A stretch of 64,000 bases of DNA from Candidatus Moraniibacteriota bacterium (GTDB lineage: Bacteria; Patescibacteriota; Minisyncoccia; Moranbacterales; UBA1568), in assembly GCA_028688415.1 (NCBI GenBank), contig JAQTYF010000001.1:780020-844019 (forward strand). Reading direction: 5' to 3'. Shown here piece by piece: positions 3,335 to 64,000 of the stretch. Under the pieces are notes generated by a model. It saw nothing but the letters and a program-made list of their open reading frames with translations. It did no database searches and had not been told where the DNA came from. The translations under genes and the position numbers were made by a program. How positions within the stretch are numbered: position 1 is the stretch's first letter; every line of letters begins with the position of its first letter.

Positions 3335-3679
3335 AGATTGTCTTTAGGAGTAAACTCTGTCCCTCGTAAGGGAGAAAGGTTGGCTTCTTAAGTCAACTGG
3401 AGATAATAGCATATTATACAAGTTTTGTCAATACTGATAAACAGATTATTAGCTTATATAAAGCATTTATGTACATAAAAGATCCTATTTTCGAGTCTTT
3501 TTTGTTCAAATATCATACCGCGACAAAGAAAAATCCCTATCCGGAAATGGACAGGGATTTTACTTTGTTGGAGCGGGTAAGGGGAGTCCTTTTTGCTCCG
3601 ACAAAAAGCCGGGGCGCTACACACAGAATACTCGCTCGCTCGCATTCGACTCGCGCCCTTCTCCTCCCACTTACCCAGA

Positions 3680-3712: not shown

Positions 3713-3722
3713 AGTTCTTTTG

Positions 3723-3794
3723 AGCGGGTAAGGGGAGTCGAACCCCTATCTAATCCTTGGCAAGGACTCATAATAGCCGCTATACGATACCCGC
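3723..3794 (-). tRNA. tRNA-Gly (anticodon GCC)
   Basis: Manual fold: acceptor GCGGGTA/TACCCGC, anticodon loop TTGCCAA, T-loop TTCGACT. Confidence 0.8.
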
Positions 3795-3932
3795 TTACTC
3801 CGCCAGCTGGCGGATTCGGCGGACAAGCCCGCTATAGCCATCTGACATTTTTACTACACTCTCTATTTTTTTTATATTCTTCTATTCCTCTGTGGGACTG
3901 GTTGGAATCGGACCAACGACCAAGCGGTTATG

Positions 3933-4542
3933 CTTCTCACTATTGCTTTCACAACTTTTTTCAAATTTGTGAGCTGGACTATCCCTTCACCCAAAGGTAG
4001 GGTGTCTGCCGTCTAGTCTCTACACCTTCCTCAACAAACGAGGCTTGGCTCGGGATTGTCATGTAGCTTATCGCCATTTAGATTTCCCCGAATTTGACAG
4101 AGTATCACCCAAAGATTACTCTCTGGGCAGCCCTGCTAGATTCATTCGTTTTGTGTTATGATAATGTTATGAAAAAACTCATAACATGTGTGGTGTGTAA
4201 AAAAGAGTTGTCTGGCAGACAAACAGTTTTTTGTTCCGCCATTTGTAAAAACCAACTTCATCAATCATATCAATCCCAACAAGCCAGAGGCTTAGAGAGA
4301 AAGATGTCACTTTTGAAACAGTTTGGTGGAAAATGTTCAGTTTGTGGCTATAACAAAAATCTTGCCGCATTGACTTTTCACCATATTGACCCAAAAGAAA
4401 AAAGATTTCAGCTGGATATGAGATCTCTTTCAAACAGAAAGCAATCTCATATTGACGAGGAAGCAAGCAAATGTTTGCTTATTTGCAATAACTGTCACGC
4501 CGAATTACACAATCCACAACACAATTTAGAATGAACTCTTTG
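3933..4542 (-). mobile_element. group I intron in the tRNA(CAT) anticodon loop
   Basis: 5' exon ends in U33 and the intron ends in G. Conserved core elements occur in canonical order on the minus strand: P-like AAAUUCGGGGAAA (4081-4095), Q-like AAUCCCGAGCC (4047-4057), R-like UAGAGACUAGACGG (4009-4022), S-like GGGAUAGUCCAG (3974-3985). P7 pairs GACUA with UAGUC. Confidence 0.6.
4169..4534 (+). CDS. HNH endonuclease (homing-endonuclease-like), encoded antisense within the tRNA intron
   Basis: CVVCKK...CSVCGYNKNLAALTFHHIDPKEK...CNNCHAELH: zinc-finger plus HNH motif. The ORF extends upstream to 4094. Confidence 0.7.
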   Translation: MKKLITCVVCKKELSGRQTVFCSAICKNQLHQSYQSQQARGLERKMSLLKQFGGKCSVCGYNKNLAALTFHHIDPKEKRFQLDMRSLSNRKQSHIDEEASKCLLICNNCHAELHNPQHNLE

Positions 4543-4604
4543 AGCCGCGCGCTCTACCACTGAGCTACAGTCCCACTACGCTTTACCTATTGACTACTCT
4601 TTTC

Positions 4605-4634
4605 TCTTCACAGACTTTTGTGCCGAGGGACAGG
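4605..4634 (-). repeat. partial duplicate of the tRNA-Phe 3' end plus its 3' flank
   Basis: tcttcacagacttttgtgccgagggacagg is about 90 percent identical to 4793-4822. No complete cloverleaf can be formed. Confidence 0.5.
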
Positions 4635-4808
4635 TATTTCACTACTCGTCCTTCGGGCTGCGTTCTCTAGGACTTCCGTCCTTGAGTCCTGCTTCGCAGG
4701 TCACCTCAAACGGGCAAACAAATGTTTTCCCGACCCCTTTCCTGTTCAATCGTAACATTTTGAAAGGTTCTTGAGAACAACCTTATTCTTACTCTTTACA
4801 GACTTTTG

Positions 4809-4880
<72 letters not shown>

Positions 4881-60692: not shown

Positions 60693-62120
60693 ATGAAACA
60701 AACAAAAATCGTCGCCACGATCGGACCCGCATCAGAATCCAAAGAGATGTTACGGAAAATGATACTTGCAGGAATGAATGTGGTGCGTCTCAATTTCTCA
60801 CACGGTGCATACGAGTGGCACAAAGCAGTCATCGACAGAGTTCGCGAACTCTCTCTTGAGATGCATGTACCGATTGCTATTTTGGCTGATATTCAGGGAC
60901 CGCGGATTCGCACGGAAGTAAAAGAAGAGATTGTTCTCGTAAAAGGGGATCGTATTCGTTTGAGTGATATTGCCAAGAAAGAAGTTCTCGCAGACTCAGA
61001 ATATCCGACAGCGCTTCTTGATATGGCCGGTATGATCGATGGTGTGGATGTCAATCACAGCATTCTTATTGAAGATGGCACAATGGAGCTCGTGGTACGA
61101 GAAAAAGGAGCTGATTTTGTTCTTGCAGAGGCAAAAAATGACGGAGTGATCAAGAACCGAAAGGGCGTCACTCTTCCTGATTCGCATCTCGAACTTTCTA
61201 TTCTTTCAGAAAAAGACAGAAATGATGTGCGGTTTGTTGTGGAACAGGAAGTGGATTATATCGGACTGTCATTTGTTGGATCAGCGAGAGATATTGCAGA
61301 AGTACGTGAGCTCATACAAAATGTCATTTCAGAAGGATCTCCTGTTCCGAAAATTGTTTCCAAGATCGAACGCAAAGAAGCAATAAGAAATCTCACTGAA
61401 ATTATAAAAGGAAGTGATGCGGTGATGGTGGCGCGAGGAGATCTCGGTATCGAGATGCCAGAGAGTGAAGTTGCTATTTTGCAAAAGCAAATTATTGCGG
61501 AGAGTTTGCGAGCAGCCAAGCCAGTGATTGTTGCTACTCAAATGCTCAAGAGCATGACAGAAAATCCTCGTCCGACACGTGCCGAAGTCTCCGATGTGTC
61601 CAATGCGGTCATCGATCATGCGGATGCTGTGATGCTCTCCGAAGAATCCGCGATGGGTAAATATCCTGTGGAAGCCATTGCTATGATGGCGGAGATTATA
61701 GAGAAAACAGAAGAATCACCATTCGATGATATGTATAAGACGCTCAATGTGAATTTTCAGAGTGAGACAGCAACGATGATGAGAAGTGTATACGAGCTGG
61801 CAAAAAGCTTCCATGTTCAAGCAATCCTTTTGTTTTCGGTGAGTGGGCATGCTGCCAAACTCCTCTCTCATTTTCGTCCCGAGAACAAAATATTTGTTGC
61901 TACCAAGAGCCGCAATACCTACAATGAATTGGCTCTCGTATGGGGTGTGAATCCATATGTCTTCGAAAACGATGAAGAAACAGAAGATTTCATTACTCAT
62001 TTGATGGAGGTGACAAAGAATGACGGAAAACTTATGAGTGGAGATCAGGTGGTGATATTTCACGGACGAACAAAACAGGAAGATAACATGAAACTTGTCG
62101 GAATCAAAGAAATACGATAG
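60693..62120 (+). CDS. pyk: pyruvate kinase
   Basis: N-terminal TKIVATIGPAS...MNVVRLNFSHG; 475 aa. Confidence 0.9.
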   Translation: MKQTKIVATIGPASESKEMLRKMILAGMNVVRLNFSHGAYEWHKAVIDRVRELSLEMHVPIAILADIQGPRIRTEVKEEIVLVKGDRIRLSDIAKKEVLADSEYPTALLDMAGMIDGVDVNHSILIEDGTMELVVREKGADFVLAEAKNDGVIKNRKGVTLPDSHLELSILSEKDRNDVRFVVEQEVDYIGLSFVGSARDIAEVRELIQNVISEGSPVPKIVSKIERKEAIRNLTEIIKGSDAVMVARGDLGIEMPESEVAILQKQIIAESLRAAKPVIVATQMLKSMTENPRPTRAEVSDVSNAVIDHADAVMLSEESAMGKYPVEAIAMMAEIIEKTEESPFDDMYKTLNVNFQSETATMMRSVYELAKSFHVQAILLFSVSGHAAKLLSHFRPENKIFVATKSRNTYNELALVWGVNPYVFENDEETEDFITHLMEVTKNDGKLMSGDQVVIFHGRTKQEDNMKLVGIKEIR

Positions 62121-62132
62121 AATCATACTTCA

Positions 62133-62405
62133 GTGAATAAAAAGCAAATGTATTACGTTTATGTTCTTCAAAGTAAGAAAAATAAACGCCTTTATAAAGG
62201 CGTAACAAATGATTTAAAACGAAGATTGAAAGAACATAATAGTGGAAATGTTCCTTTTACGAAAAATTTAATGCCTTGGGAATTGATATATTATGAAGCG
62301 TTTCAGAATAAAGAAGATGCAAATAGAGAAGAAAAGTTTTTAAAAAGTGGAAAAGGGAGAGATCGAATAAAGTGGTTATTGAAAAGTGTACTTGAGGAAA
62401 AATAA
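62133..62405 (+). CDS. GIY-YIG nuclease-family small protein
   Basis: YYVYVLQSKKNKRLYKGVTNDLKRRLKEHN matches the GIY-YIG signature. Confidence 0.65.
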   Translation: MNKKQMYYVYVLQSKKNKRLYKGVTNDLKRRLKEHNSGNVPFTKNLMPWELIYYEAFQNKEDANREEKFLKSGKGRDRIKWLLKSVLEEK

Positions 62406-62409
62406 GAAT

Positions 62410-62460
62410 GGAAAGGTGGCCCCAGCCCAAGGCTGGTCCGCCTTGGGCGGAGAGTGGTTG
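62410..62460 (+). pseudogene. truncated tRNA-Ser-like 5' fragment carrying the 30-nt D-loop insertion
   Basis: GGAAAGGTGGCC, then ccagcccaaggctggtccgccttgggcgga, then GAGTGGTTG, then the sequence breaks off. Confidence 0.45.
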
Positions 62461-62469
62461 TAGACATAT

Positions 62470-62554
62470 GGAAAGGTGGCCGAGTGGTTGAAGGTACTCG
62501 CTTGGAAAGCGAGCATACCGAAAGGTATCGAGGGTTCGAATCCCTCCCTTTCCT
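62470..62554 (+). tRNA. tRNA-Ser (anticodon GGA)
   Basis: Manual fold: acceptor GGAAAGG/CCTTTCC, D-arm GCC-GAGTGGTTGAA-GGT, anticodon loop TTGGAAA, long variable arm, T-loop TTCGAAT. Confidence 0.8.
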
Positions 62555-62563
62555 CAGAGTAAA

Positions 62564-62678
62564 TAAAAGGTGGTCCCAGCCCAAGGCTGGTCCGCCTTGG
62601 GCGGAGAGTGGTTGAAGGTACTCGCTTGGAAAGCGAGCATACCGAAAGGTATCGAGGGTTCGAATCCCTCTCCTTCCT
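62564..62678 (+). pseudogene. tRNA-Ser-derived pseudo-copy with the 30-nt D-loop insertion
   Basis: Identical to tRNA-Ser through the anticodon arm, variable arm and T-arm. Has the 30-nt insertion in the D-loop. Acceptor strands (TAAAAGG versus TCCTTCC) cannot pair. Confidence 0.5.
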
Positions 62679-62687
62679 CAGAGTAAA

Positions 62688-62802
62688 TAAAAGGTGGCCC
62701 CAGCCCAAGGCTGGTCCGCCTTGGGCGGAGAGTGGTTGAAGGTACTCGCTTGGAAAGCGAGCATACCGAAAGGTATCGAGGGTTCGAATCCCTCTCCTTC
62801 CT
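62688..62802 (+). pseudogene. tRNA-Ser-derived pseudo-copy with the 30-nt D-loop insertion (second copy)
   Basis: Near-identical to 62564-62678. Confidence 0.5.
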
Positions 62803-62966
62803 CAATGAACATAGTGAATAGAGGTGAGAAGAAAGCAAACTTCCGCCAGCTGGCGGATGGCTTTCGTGAGGGATGAGAAAGACGGAGTGATGTTTCGTGA
62901 GTACACGAAACCACGAGTCAGGGTCGTGGAAATTTATGAGCGTCGGCGAATAAATTATCCCTGACC

Positions 62967-62985
62967 GAATCCCTCTCCTTCCTCA
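62967..62985 (+). repeat. isolated copy of the tRNA-Ser-like 3' end
   Basis: GAATCCCTCTCCTTCCTCA, identical to the 3' ends of the two pseudo-copies; lies 160 bp downstream of the array. Confidence 0.45.
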
Positions 62986-62990
62986 TCAGA

Positions 62991-63024
62991 AAAAAGCAGA
63001 CCATTTTATAGGTCTGCTTTTTTT
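62991..63024 (+). terminator. rho-independent terminator ending the tRNA array transcript
   Basis: gcagacc-attttata-ggtctgc plus a T-run. Confidence 0.6.
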
Positions 63025-63141
63025 ATAATGTGAATGAAAGAGGAATTTCTTAAACTTTCTCGTCCAAACCCCTGCTTTTCTTTGACTTCTAGAGACAATG
63101 ATGGTATACCGTGAGTTACGTAGTACATTTCCAAACTAAAG

Positions 63142-63687
63142 TTGAAAGGAAAAAACATGGGTAACAATCTGTTTCTGTACCTCTGTACTCACCTGAATTT
63201 GTTTCGTTATACAGCCACAAAATGTGGTCATCGTACAAAGCAAAATGGTTCGGTATCTGCATTTGGGCGTACCATTACCACTGAAATGCCGAAAAACGAA
63301 AATGGTTCGGTTGATTATTGCCTTGATTGCATTGGCAAAATGGCAATCCGTTGTGCGTGGTGCGGTGAACCAATTTTTATTGGCGATCCAGTCACCCTCT
63401 ATTCGCCGCCGATGAAAGAATTTCAAATTCCTCAGTATGCGGTCATCTATAGCGAAGTTCCATTGCGATTCATTGGTTGTCTCGGCTGGGACTGCGCTGA
63501 CACCGGAGCCGATCGATCTGGTTTCTGGTTGCCTGATGAAAATGGTAAGGGTTTTGTTTATCGAGTGCCTACCATCTACGAAAAAATATTTGAAACAAAA
63601 GGATCTCCCGTGATGATCATCGATGACCTCGGTGATAGAAGGGAGACTATGAGCTTCCGTTCTGTTCGAAGACCAGAAATGAAATAA
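63142..63687 (+). CDS. hypothetical Cys-rich protein
   Basis: CGH...CLDCIGK...CAWCGEP...CLGWDC cysteine clusters; local GC is higher than surrounding DNA. Confidence 0.35.
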   Translation: MKGKNMGNNLFLYLCTHLNLFRYTATKCGHRTKQNGSVSAFGRTITTEMPKNENGSVDYCLDCIGKMAIRCAWCGEPIFIGDPVTLYSPPMKEFQIPQYAVIYSEVPLRFIGCLGWDCADTGADRSGFWLPDENGKGFVYRVPTIYEKIFETKGSPVMIIDDLGDRRETMSFRSVRRPEMK

Positions 63688-63745
63688 TTTTCAATGGCCT
63701 GTATGATTTGAGAGCTGACACAATACACTGTCAGCTCTTTTCTTT

Positions 63746-64000
63746 TTATAAATGTTTCTTCCCCCACGTATTGAGCGCACAGATGAGAGGGGCAAGACTC
63801 TTCCCTTTACGACTGAGAGTGTATTCTACTTTAGGAGGGATGGTCGGATAGACTTTTCGTGTGACGAGTTCGTGTTGTTCGAGTTCACGAAGAGACTGAA
63901 TAAGCATTTTTTCGCTGATTTTCGGAACAAGCTTTTTGAGCTCTCCATAGCGCTTTTTTCCACTTCCGAGATGCCAGATAAGAATCGTCTTCCATTTCCC
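63746..64000 (-). CDS. HxlR-family (MarR-like winged-helix) transcriptional regulator, N-terminus beyond the window
   Basis: Manual translation of the minus strand gives ...GKWKTILIWHLGSGKKRYGELKKLVPKISEKMLIQSLRELEQHELVTRKVYPTIPPKVEYTLSRKG... Confidence 0.55.
   Translation of the reverse strand, partial: GKWKTILIWHLGSGKKRYGELKKLVPKISEKMLIQSLRELEQHELVTRKVYPTIPPKVEYTLSRKGKSLAPLICALNTWGKKHL

Follow-up and report, generated by a model that had tools for sequence, protein, structure and literature searches.

The window analyzed here, the whole 64-kb stretch of DNA taken from a Candidatus Moraniibacteriota bacterium, carries near its right end a functional tRNA-Ser(GGA) gene (unit B) in the midst of three defective copies (units A, C and D), each of which holds one and the same 30-bp double-hairpin element (DHE) in its D-loop. 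A small gene for an 85-residue GIY-YIG nuclease precedes this array, and a conserved non-coding segment, M, follows it (Table 1). In an earlier, sequence-only reading the array had been described and three explanations had been offered: a tRNA-derived repetitive or SINE-like element, decayed integrations of a tRNA-targeting mobile element, or tRNA precursors from which the insertion is excised. Only the second of these holds up, and it is essentially supported by our analysis. We conclude, with a probability of roughly 0.7, that the locus is a tRNA-Ser(GGA) gene colonized by a selfish, tRNA-targeting cassette family of the Patescibacteria, which would have left a field of scars, with a 124-nt tandem duplication after that. 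What had been missed is that the insert is itself mobile, that the 85-aa open reading frame (ORF) is a nuclease gene that accompanies the DHE in relatives, and that the isolated piece of tRNA 3' end downstream of the array is part of the older segment M.

Table 1. Features of the tRNA-Ser(GGA) locus, numbered from the first nucleotide of the window.
Feature	Position	Strand	Remarks
GIY-YIG nuclease gene, 85 aa, UPF0213/Slx1 clade	62148..62405	+	alternative GTG start at 62133
Unit A, tRNA-Ser 5' fragment	62410..62460	+	tRNA nt 1-12, DHE, nt 13-21
DHE copy 1	62422..62451	+	
Unit B, functional tRNA-Ser(GGA) without insert	62470..62555	+	full cloverleaf, acceptor stem 7/7
Unit C, tRNA-Ser pseudogene	62564..62678	+	DHE at nt 12/13
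DHE copy 2	62576..62605	+	
Unit D, tandem duplicate of unit C	62688..62802	+	one base different
DHE copy 3	62700..62729	+	
Segment M, conserved structured non-coding element	62804..62965	+	follows tRNA-Ser(GGA) in relatives without GIY gene and DHE
16-nt single-hairpin palindrome TCCGCCAGCTGGCGGA	62842..62857	+	in a hairpin loop of M; stem of DHE hairpin 2
20-nt copy of the tRNA-Ser 3' end, end of M	62966..62985	+	identical to 62661-62680 and 62785-62804
Terminator-like hairpin AGCAGACC..GGTCTGCT, then T-run	~62990..63025	+	read from sequence

The tRNA-Ser copies and the dispersed double-hairpin element

A single tRNA-Ser(GGA) is called by ARAGORN, with the limits of unit B, and this unit reaches 59.8 bits against the Rfam tRNA model. 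The intact gene, the truncated 5' copy upstream of it and the two full-length pseudo-copies downstream are thus present as the sequence-only reading had them. The insert in units A, C and D is the 30-mer CCAGCCCAAGGCTGGTCCGCCTTGGGCGGA, which occurs exactly three times in the window; no fourth copy with up to three mismatches is found there, and shuffled sequences lead one to expect none. Each insert is flanked by GGTGG(C/T)C and GAGTGG, that is, it lies at tRNA nt 12/13. Unit A breaks off after nt 21 and is followed by the 9-nt spacer tagacatat, and its layout recurs in L012, L014, L023, L034, L054-L061 and L145 (loci of other genomes and metagenomes are referred to by L numbers throughout). 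Units C and D comprise the whole tRNA body, with TAAAAGG as 5' end and TCCTTCC as 3' acceptor strand; the 3' end of unit B reads ..CCCTTTCC and that of units C and D ..CTCCTTCC, and the tRNA-Ser allele of L060 matches both the body and the 3' acceptor strand of unit C. The junction between B and C is CCTTTCCtcagagtaaataaaaggtggTcc, the one between C and D TCCTTCCtcagagtaaataaaaggtggCcc. Tandem Repeats Finder reports a period of 124 nt with 2.6 copies and a 98% match at 62482-62804, and a repeat-finding run on the window returned the same families. With this period and identity, and with the same tRNA sequence between all of the 30-mers, the array is not a CRISPR, as had been stated before.

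When the insert is deleted in silico from units C and D, four of the seven acceptor positions pair, and the pairs 1:72 and 2:71 are broken by A/C mismatches, which bears out the earlier remark on unpairable acceptor strands. Scoring of the units with the Rfam covariance model, a check that had been proposed, yielded 27.8 bits for C and D, under the gathering score of 29. ARAGORN does call both units after deletion of the insert if its threshold is relaxed. Given the sub-threshold score and the broken acceptor stem, carriers C and D are dead; together with unit A they are defunct remnants of tRNA-Ser that the DHE splits at nt 12/13. A scan of positions 61000-64000 against Rfam with E up to 10 produced nothing but tRNA matches; apparent matches to sX4, plastid-UTR and RAGATH-28 lie far under their thresholds and reflect tRNA-like sequence.

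The DHE is GC-rich and consists of two 6-bp stems whose 3-nt loops are complementary to one another. As single-stranded DNA it folds into the two 6-bp hairpins that the sequence-only reading had recognized (-11.9 kcal/mol, z = -4.3), and an alternative fold with a 9-bp hairpin between the two halves is of nearly equal stability. Variants of the element retain both stems by compensatory changes, as in CCAGCTcaaAGCTGG TGCGCCctgGGCGCA and TTGGCCcaaGGCCAA CCAGCCtggGGCTGG, and a further variant, TCTGGCtacGCCAGA TCTGGCgtaGCCAGA, is a perfect palindrome. In 24 distinct variants 99.3% of the cells are paired and nine of the twelve pairs have changed on both sides, a result matched by none of 500 shuffles, although the statistic is inflated because part of the variant set was gathered with a perfect-hairpin filter. 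The pairing between the halves is kept at 91% in these 24 variants.

The search for the insert in related genomes, which had likewise been recommended, was carried out by scanning its 24-nt core against a genome collection with one genome per species. The core occurs at 49 loci, almost all of them in metagenome-assembled genomes of Patescibacteria, mostly Moranbacteria, with up to five loci per genome; the titles of these entries name Moranbacteria, Parcubacteria or the Patescibacteria group, and about one third bear other, unchecked labels such as Bdellovibrionales and Gammaproteobacteria. Within the 49 loci there are 49 exact copies of the DHE and ten with one mismatch. Viral contigs contain no match to the core, and hence give no sign of a phage origin. 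At tRNA and coding sites the insertion measures exactly 30 bp, with no duplication of the target. Written as CCAGCC..GGCGGA, the element is flanked as T(C/G)-DHE-(A/G)A, with an A at position +2 in 15 of 16 coding sites and in all 26 other sites.

Every tRNA-embedded DHE that was examined had a fragment or a pseudo-copy as its carrier, with an intact gene for the same tRNA alongside. The element stands at nt 12/13, in either orientation, in 5' fragments of tRNA-Ser (GGA, CGA, TGA and GCT) and also of tRNA-Lys(CTT), tRNA-Thr(TGT), tRNA-Arg(GCG) and tRNA-Phe(GAA). At most loci the fragment shares its nt 1-12 with an intact tRNA that begins 6-60 nt, or one GIY gene, further downstream; the acceptor strand of the fragment differs in L039, L055 and one copy in L014. 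At a tRNA-Val locus a 3' partial copy that starts with the DHE lies after the gene. L045 has a tRNA-Arg 3' remnant with the DHE in its T-loop and a tRNA-Ser fragment with a variant of the DHE in its anticodon loop, and in L145 a decayed, almost full-length tRNA-Ser with the DHE at nt 12/13 and a second hairpin insert precedes the working gene. Going by this comparison, units A, C and D of the window are instances of a pattern of DHE-bearing tRNA pseudo-copies that is seen across relatives. The tRNA parts of the carriers match the local tRNA (Ser, Tyr, Lys, Thr, Arg, Phe, Val or Cys), and the unit conserved across genomes is the 30-nt palindrome and no part of a tRNA, which is why the idea of a SINE-like, tRNA-derived repeat is unsupported. 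The insert is not derived from tRNA but is a double-hairpin palindrome of 30 bp that is mobile, or at the least dispersed.

Solo copies of the DHE are also found within protein genes. The element is exactly ten codons long and free of stop codons in all six frames, and 15 of 16 coding copies begin on a codon boundary (phase 0). The genes in which it lies in-frame (L001, L008, L011, L017-L019, L024, L030, L032, L035-L037, L041, L042 and L044) encode PolA, an IscS-like protein, a glycosyltransferase, Xth, Tgt, LysS, PheS, Tsf, the CCA-adding enzyme, UvrB and FtsK. Pfam confirmed DHE-bearing ORFs as Tgt, PolA, exonuclease III, LysRS, PheRS-alpha, EF-Ts, UvrB and a class-V aminotransferase; for Tgt, exonuclease III, LysRS and EF-Ts the top domain match extends over the insert. 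The peptide SAQGGPALGW results in 14 of the 15 phase-0 copies, mostly between F/L and D/E, and PAQGWSALGG in the remaining one. The insertion in Tgt (GF-SAQGGPALGW-DGYAIGG) is found at the same position in three genomes, and the one in Xth at the same position in two. This preferred codon phase implies that the coding copies are translated and not removed.

Of the intergenic copies, one lies directly behind the stop codon of tuf, and does so in two genomes. Many more (L004, L006, L007, L010, L013, L025, L027-L029, L038, L043 and L046-L049) are flanked on both sides by several tandem, directly oriented and lineage-specific 7-8-mers such as GAAAATTG, AATACTG, GAATGTG or TAATTCT. A simple target-site duplication was considered for these and rejected: the flanking heptamers are multi-copy tandem repeats, and the tRNA and coding sites show an exact 30-bp insertion without duplication. 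The DHE is kept only where it is harmless, in intergenic DNA, in dead tRNA copies and in reading frames that tolerate ten extra residues.

The GIY-YIG gene and its filled and empty alleles

The 85-aa protein matches the Pfam family GIY-YIG (PF01541) with 63.3 bits, its catalytic domain extending over residues 1-68, and the Y, G, R, H/N and E positions are invariant in five homologues. In a profile search of the PDB the nearest entries are UPF0213 proteins, 1zg2 (E = 1.8e-8) and 1ywl (BH0048, EF2693), followed by 6seh and 7cq2 of Slx1, a structure-specific nuclease; these closest relatives place the protein in the UPF0213/Slx1 clade. The family relationship between UPF0213 and Slx1 is stated in PMC7017083. 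The NCBIfam model for group-I-intron endonucleases gives 17 bits against a cut-off of 56.

In L002, L034, L039, L054 and L055 a homologue with 80-89% identity has a DHE-bearing tRNA-Ser fragment on one side and an intact tRNA-Ser on the other. Genome loci in which the GIY homologue stands directly beside a DHE are L002, L034 and L039 (80-84% identity) and L045 (about 40%). A scan of metagenomes with an alignment of the GIY proteins retrieved 80 loci, 45 of which have a tRNA gene adjacent to the GIY gene, with 54 tRNAs on the same strand and one on the opposite strand. At 29 loci the tRNA starts within 130 nt of the end of the GIY gene, and in 17 of these the GIY gene is preceded by a fragment that matches the first 12 nt of the tRNA with at most two mismatches and that contains a GC-rich hairpin or terminates in one. 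At all eight loci whose GIY protein reaches 64% identity or more, the gene is preceded by a canonical or compensated DHE at a distance of 29-65 nt and followed after 1-13 nt by a tRNA-Ser or tRNA-Tyr, whereas the canonical DHE occurs in none of the other 72 metagenome loci.

The type of hairpin tracks the GIY clade and not the identity of the tRNA. Other clades are accompanied by a long TACCCGCC..GGCGGGTA hairpin at nt 20/21 (Lys, Val), by GGTCGCCnnnGGCGACAGG after nt 25 (Ile, Ala) or by GAACC-acgtgg-GGTTC. At tRNA-Cys loci (L079:450-1100, L084 and L094:1800-2500, L087) a different 30-nt double hairpin is present, for example the perfect palindrome TCTGGCTACGCCAGATCTGGCGTAGCCAGA, and in L079 and L094 the 30-nt palindrome stands on both sides of a module made of the GIY gene and a complete tRNA-Cys. 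The resident tRNA-Cys of L079 is split at anticodon position 34/35; in L094 the left remnant is nt 1-10 only and the right one begins at nt 35. Note that the outer tRNA-Cys remnants of both loci keep complementary acceptor strands.

By way of homologues of pyruvate kinase (PK) we located the same chromosomal site in relatives. In the related Moranbacteria of L137 (PK 88% identical), L138-L140 (85% and 77%) and L141 (74%), PK is directly followed by tRNA-Ser(GGA), and both the GIY gene and the DHE are lacking; filled alleles are those of the window, L002, L034, L054, L055 and L060. The window is collinear with L138 through the 3' end of PK and a spacer of 27 nt, and homology stops exactly at the ATG of the GIY gene, which is present or absent at an otherwise conserved site with its start codon as the boundary. 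L054 is collinear with L137 until 21 nt before its DHE-bearing fragment, and then again from the tRNA onward. Two distinct types of tRNA-Ser(GGA) are found at the site behind PK, one in L002 and L138-L140, the other in the window, L054, L055 and L060; the D-arm of one type is GTCGCATAGTGG... and that of the other TGGCCGAGYGGTYGAAGG. The presence of two types at one site argues for allele replacement at this locus. L002 combines an intact tRNA of the L138 type with fragments of the other type, both of them DHE-bearing, that flank the GIY gene; the fragments were therefore imported together with the cassette. Some spacers without a GIY gene (L012, L016) resemble deleted GIY genes, that of L016 encoding ..GGRAWLLKTKEVK, similar to the GIY C-terminus. 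As evidenced by this alignment of filled and empty alleles, the cassette in the window is an insertion.

Segment M, of 162 nt, is conserved together with the 20-nt piece in two loci that lack the cassette, L141 and L143; L002 and L054 retain part of it. Including its tRNA-3'-like end it measures about 180 nt, with homologous stretches at L141:3552-3745 and L143:3495-3680 (-). The RNAalifold consensus, obtained from three sequences only, comprises 13 pairs with compensatory change, and M matches no Rfam family in the scan of 61000-64000. Judged by its conservation, M is an older element that ends in a tRNA-3'-like sequence and lies outside the cassette, and it may be an undescribed RNA gene of the Moranbacteria. 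The isolated copy of the tRNA 3' end noted in the sequence-only reading does exist in front of a terminator-like hairpin, but it is 20 nt long and not 19. It runs from the T-loop to 3 nt beyond the acceptor end, and a homologous end is present in L141, L143 and L002. An att scar of an integrase was discarded as its origin: there is no recombinase gene, and the piece is the conserved end of M in cassette-free relatives and hence did not arise from the GIY/DHE events.

The palindrome TCCGCCAGCTGGCGGA is missing at its position from M of L141 and L143, as seen in the alignment. It is found again in the window 4 nt upstream of tRNA-Gly (~3797-3812, - strand), and a version with 14 of its 16 positions, CGCCAGCTGGCGGA, follows tRNA-Ser in L034. 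In sequence it looks like half a DHE, a single-hairpin member of the same element family.

The terminator hairpin is not listed by the consensus terminator scan; its flank lies directly 3' of the intact tRNA-Ser in L054. In that locus the 3' flanks, terminator and M, stand in reversed order, which shows that recombination has taken place at the repeated tRNA 3' end. Between the terminator and an HxlR gene the window has a cysteine-rich ORF of 176 aa (63157-63687, +) without a Pfam family, and this ORF is missing from the syntenic L054.

Two other tRNA genes of the window, tRNA-Gly (3722-3794) and tRNA-Phe (4808-4880), both on the - strand, have a second copy of their 3' end some 170-190 nt downstream (~3585-3600 and ~4615-4645), so that three tRNA genes (Ser, Gly, Phe) share this layout. 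Between them a tRNA-Met(CAT) (3915-4575, - strand), which ARAGORN does not report, has its anticodon loop split by about 600 nt. The intervening DNA contains a group I intron (Rfam RF00028, 59.8 bits, 3952-4149) and, on the opposite strand, a 146-aa ORF (4094-4534) with HNH-like CxxC...HH...CNNCH motifs.

Possible mechanism and competing explanations

We consider it highly probable that a mobile DHE, as part of an inserted cassette, disrupted the pseudo-copies. The cassette family would be made up of the 30-bp DHE and a small single-domain GIY-YIG gene, of 85 aa in this case. Its nuclease would break the DNA at or beside the DHE or the tRNA-loop sequence, and the kinship with Slx1 suggests that extruded hairpins are recognized. 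Along with the DHE, repair from a cassette-bearing copy would import the nuclease gene and a tRNA, or tRNA 5' part, as replacement, and displaced parts of the resident tRNA would persist as DHE-tagged remnants. Units C and D would go back to a 124-nt tandem duplication, for which slippage on the shared TTCCTCA may be responsible, or else a segmental amplification upon breaks of the kind brought about by SegB. The whole stretch, from upstream of the GIY gene to the terminator near 63000, is probably co-transcribed. For the notion that the GIY-YIG enzyme moves or targets the DHE, we put the odds at slightly below even.

More tentatively, the DHE and the 85-aa UPF0213/Slx1-type nuclease may together constitute an undescribed kind of bacterial mobile element. 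Here, a nuclease without a DNA-binding domain might recognize the extruded hairpin or cruciform of its own palindrome, and the palindrome might be element end, landing pad and recombination hotspot in one. Such a system might move cassettes of nuclease and tRNA between tRNA genes, generate arrays of pseudo-copies and write ten-residue insertions into PolA, Tgt, aminoacyl-tRNA synthetases, EF-Ts and FtsK across the Patescibacteria. This would give the widespread UPF0213 (YhbQ/YazA) family its first biological role.

Several observations, the inflation of the pairing statistic among them, speak against colonization by a cassette family as set out here. Besides its catalytic domain, a GIY-YIG homing endonuclease has an additional DNA-binding domain, and none is evident in the 85-aa protein, a difficulty for site specificity. 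Host lineage confounds the correspondence of DHE family and GIY clade, the closest GIY homologues coming from the lineage of the DHE itself, and a GIY gene lies within 8 kb in only about 10% of the 49 DHE loci. The presumed target is retained in the intact tRNA beside the cassette, a situation that classical homing endonuclease genes avoid. The copy number of C and D rests on the assembly and not on reads. Finally, the order in the window is GIY-A-B-C-D as opposed to the commonest A-GIY-B, and the acceptor of unit A matches B and not C or D, so that the exact history of A-B-C-D is not reconstructable; Campbell-type integration, nested insertions and unequal crossing-over were tried, and none fits all types of acceptor strand, only the last step, the 124-nt duplication, being simple.

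The alternative that survives best, though we consider it unlikely, is that the DHE is an autonomous REP/MITE-like parasite moved by some other, unseen enzyme, and that the GIY gene is unrelated to it and creates the dead copies. The preferred target of the parasite would be the tRNA-loop sequence, and it would accumulate in dead copies, insertions into live tRNAs being lethal. Such a parasite would account for the many DHEs without a GIY gene within 8 kb, for the solo copies at coding and intergenic sites and for DHE-bearing pseudo-copies without a GIY gene in L145, L009 and L026; insertion beside a short motif without duplication also resembles hairpin-end elements of the IS200/IS605 type. 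It does not account for the DHE in the displaced fragment at all eight of the closest GIY loci and in L002, L034 and L039, nor for the other hairpin families that other GIY clades carry at the equivalent place. In addition, two double hairpins bracket the GIY module at the tRNA-Cys loci, and some of the spacers without a GIY gene, as in L016, look like deleted GIY genes.

We regard it as distinctly improbable that the DHE is an immunity device, which would split the nuclease site in the leftover copies and block recutting, comparable to 'collaborative homing', where an ORF-less intron shields the target of a neighboring free-standing endonuclease. The fixed tRNA position of the DHE in the remnants, 9 nt from the break point of the fragment, and the correspondence of hairpin type and GIY clade would fit such a device, and GIY-YIG homing enzymes such as I-TevI cut at a distance from the insertion site. 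Against it, the adjacent intact tRNA keeps an uninterrupted site, the solo copies in genes such as PolA and Tgt do not serve this purpose, and the target of the enzyme is itself only a presumed one.

An assembly artefact, with a repeat mis-expanded or strain variants placed end to end and a real locus of fragment plus tRNA, is very improbable. Both flanks of the array are base-for-base identical in short-read assemblies of two runs, whose contigs end inside the first DHE (62441) and restart at 62888, leaving 62442-62887 unspanned. This break and the single-base difference between C and D could be read as signs of an artefact, but a branch point in the short-read graph is the expectation for a genuine repeat with two different successors. 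The 346-kb NCBI contig GCA_028699965.1 has 0 mismatches over 5,808 shared bases, the whole array included, although it may be the window's own source. Moreover, the 3' acceptor strand and 5' context of C and D are unique within the locus, so that at least one such unit must exist, and similar right-hand DHE-bearing partial copies are found in L040, L079 and L094.

That the inserted copies are non-canonical tRNA precursors from which the 30 nt are removed at the RNA level is scarcely credible: the position in a tRNA loop, the length divisible by three, the strong structure, the calls by relaxed ARAGORN after deletion and the short introns at non-canonical tRNA positions of archaea may recall an intron, but C and D have broken acceptor stems, no more than a fragment is left of unit A and of most carriers at other loci, every examined carrier has an intact tRNA of its own kind, free of the insert, beside it, the coding copies are in phase 0, and two perfect hairpins found in both orientations at the same site have no bulge-helix-bulge geometry. 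An intron of the archaeal type was rejected on the same grounds, the insert having no 3-nt bulges that flank a 4-bp helix. A group I intron was dismissed for want of an RF00028 match in 61000-64000, the same tool having found one elsewhere in the window, and integrase-mediated integration because there is no tyrosine or serine recombinase, the ORFs between PK and HxlR being only the GIY gene and the one for the 176-aa protein.

Relation to known systems

The Rickettsia palindromic elements (RPEs) were reportedly recognized by Ogata and co-workers in 2000 as palindromic selfish DNA that lies in-frame in protein genes, and also in RNA genes, and is tolerated as a peptide segment. They are about 100-150 bp long, and we know of no nuclease gene that is associated with them; the DHE differs in its 30 bp, or ten codons, free of stops in six frames. 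Short GC hairpins, often in inverted pairs, that insert without target duplication beside a short motif are characteristic of REP/REPIN-RAYT and of IS200/IS605-derived elements. These use Y1/HUH transposases and are essentially extragenic, whereas the recurrent neighbor of the DHE is a GIY-YIG nuclease gene; no Y1/HUH transposase lies beside the DHEs, a genome-wide search for one not having been made. With integrative elements that target tRNA genes (attL/attR) the locus has in common that direct repeats of tRNA flank the inserted DNA and that an intact tRNA is regenerated. It differs from them in the lack of an integrase, in a duplicated part that is mostly the 5' end, down to 12 nt, and in the palindrome at the junction.

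SegB, a GIY-YIG enzyme of the phages T4 and T6, offers an experimental precedent in that it cuts inside tRNA genes and drives tandem amplification of a tRNA-containing segment by homologous recombination; its homologues are statistically associated with tRNA genes, and truncation of its C-terminus abolishes toxicity (PMC13096335). The gene in the window is likewise a GIY-YIG gene embedded among tRNA genes. SegB is, however, longer and phage-encoded, and no companion palindrome or displaced tRNA fragments have been described for it, whereas the protein of the window is an 85-aa catalytic domain of a different GIY-YIG clade.

For mitochondria of Allomyces, Paquin and colleagues are said to have reported in 1994 a mobile ORF of the GIY-YIG type that brought along a replacement gene end and displaced the resident one, the same logic as at the present locus. 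The DHEs of fungal mitochondria (Allomyces, Schizosaccharomyces) are G+C-rich, consist of two adjacent stem-loops and are dispersed over intergenic regions and RNA genes (PMC10085805). Identical or nearly identical copies in different species have been taken to indicate mobility or strong constraint (PMC10085805, summarizing Paquin et al. 2000). The element described here shares with them a paired unit of two stem-loops, as seen in variants that were partly chosen by structure, and dispersal in near-identical copies. Unlike the fungal elements, that of the Patescibacteria is chromosomal and has a fixed length of 30 bp and a palindromic symmetry on two levels; it is found in each of the three tRNA loops and, in frame, within housekeeping genes, and it is linked to a UPF0213/Slx1-type nuclease gene. 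Common descent with the mitochondrial DHEs is unlikely, and the name is given by architecture only.

For tiny palindromic elements such as mitochondrial DHEs, GC clusters and RPEs, which for decades have been without an identified mobility enzyme, the GIY-YIG protein is a candidate, and the filled and empty alleles together with the clade-specific pairings of hairpin and nuclease make the question testable in vitro. Our analysis also accounts for the odd pseudo-tRNAs at tRNA loci of Patescibacteria and for the breaks of short-read assemblies there, identifies the source of ten-residue insertions in conserved proteins of this group and suggests a role in selfish elements for members of the uncharacterized UPF0213 family. 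We found no prior description of a system of DHE, GIY gene and tRNA in the open-access literature. A fixed 30-bp palindrome, a UPF0213-type nuclease and the targeting of tRNA loops in bacteria are united in none of the systems compared above.

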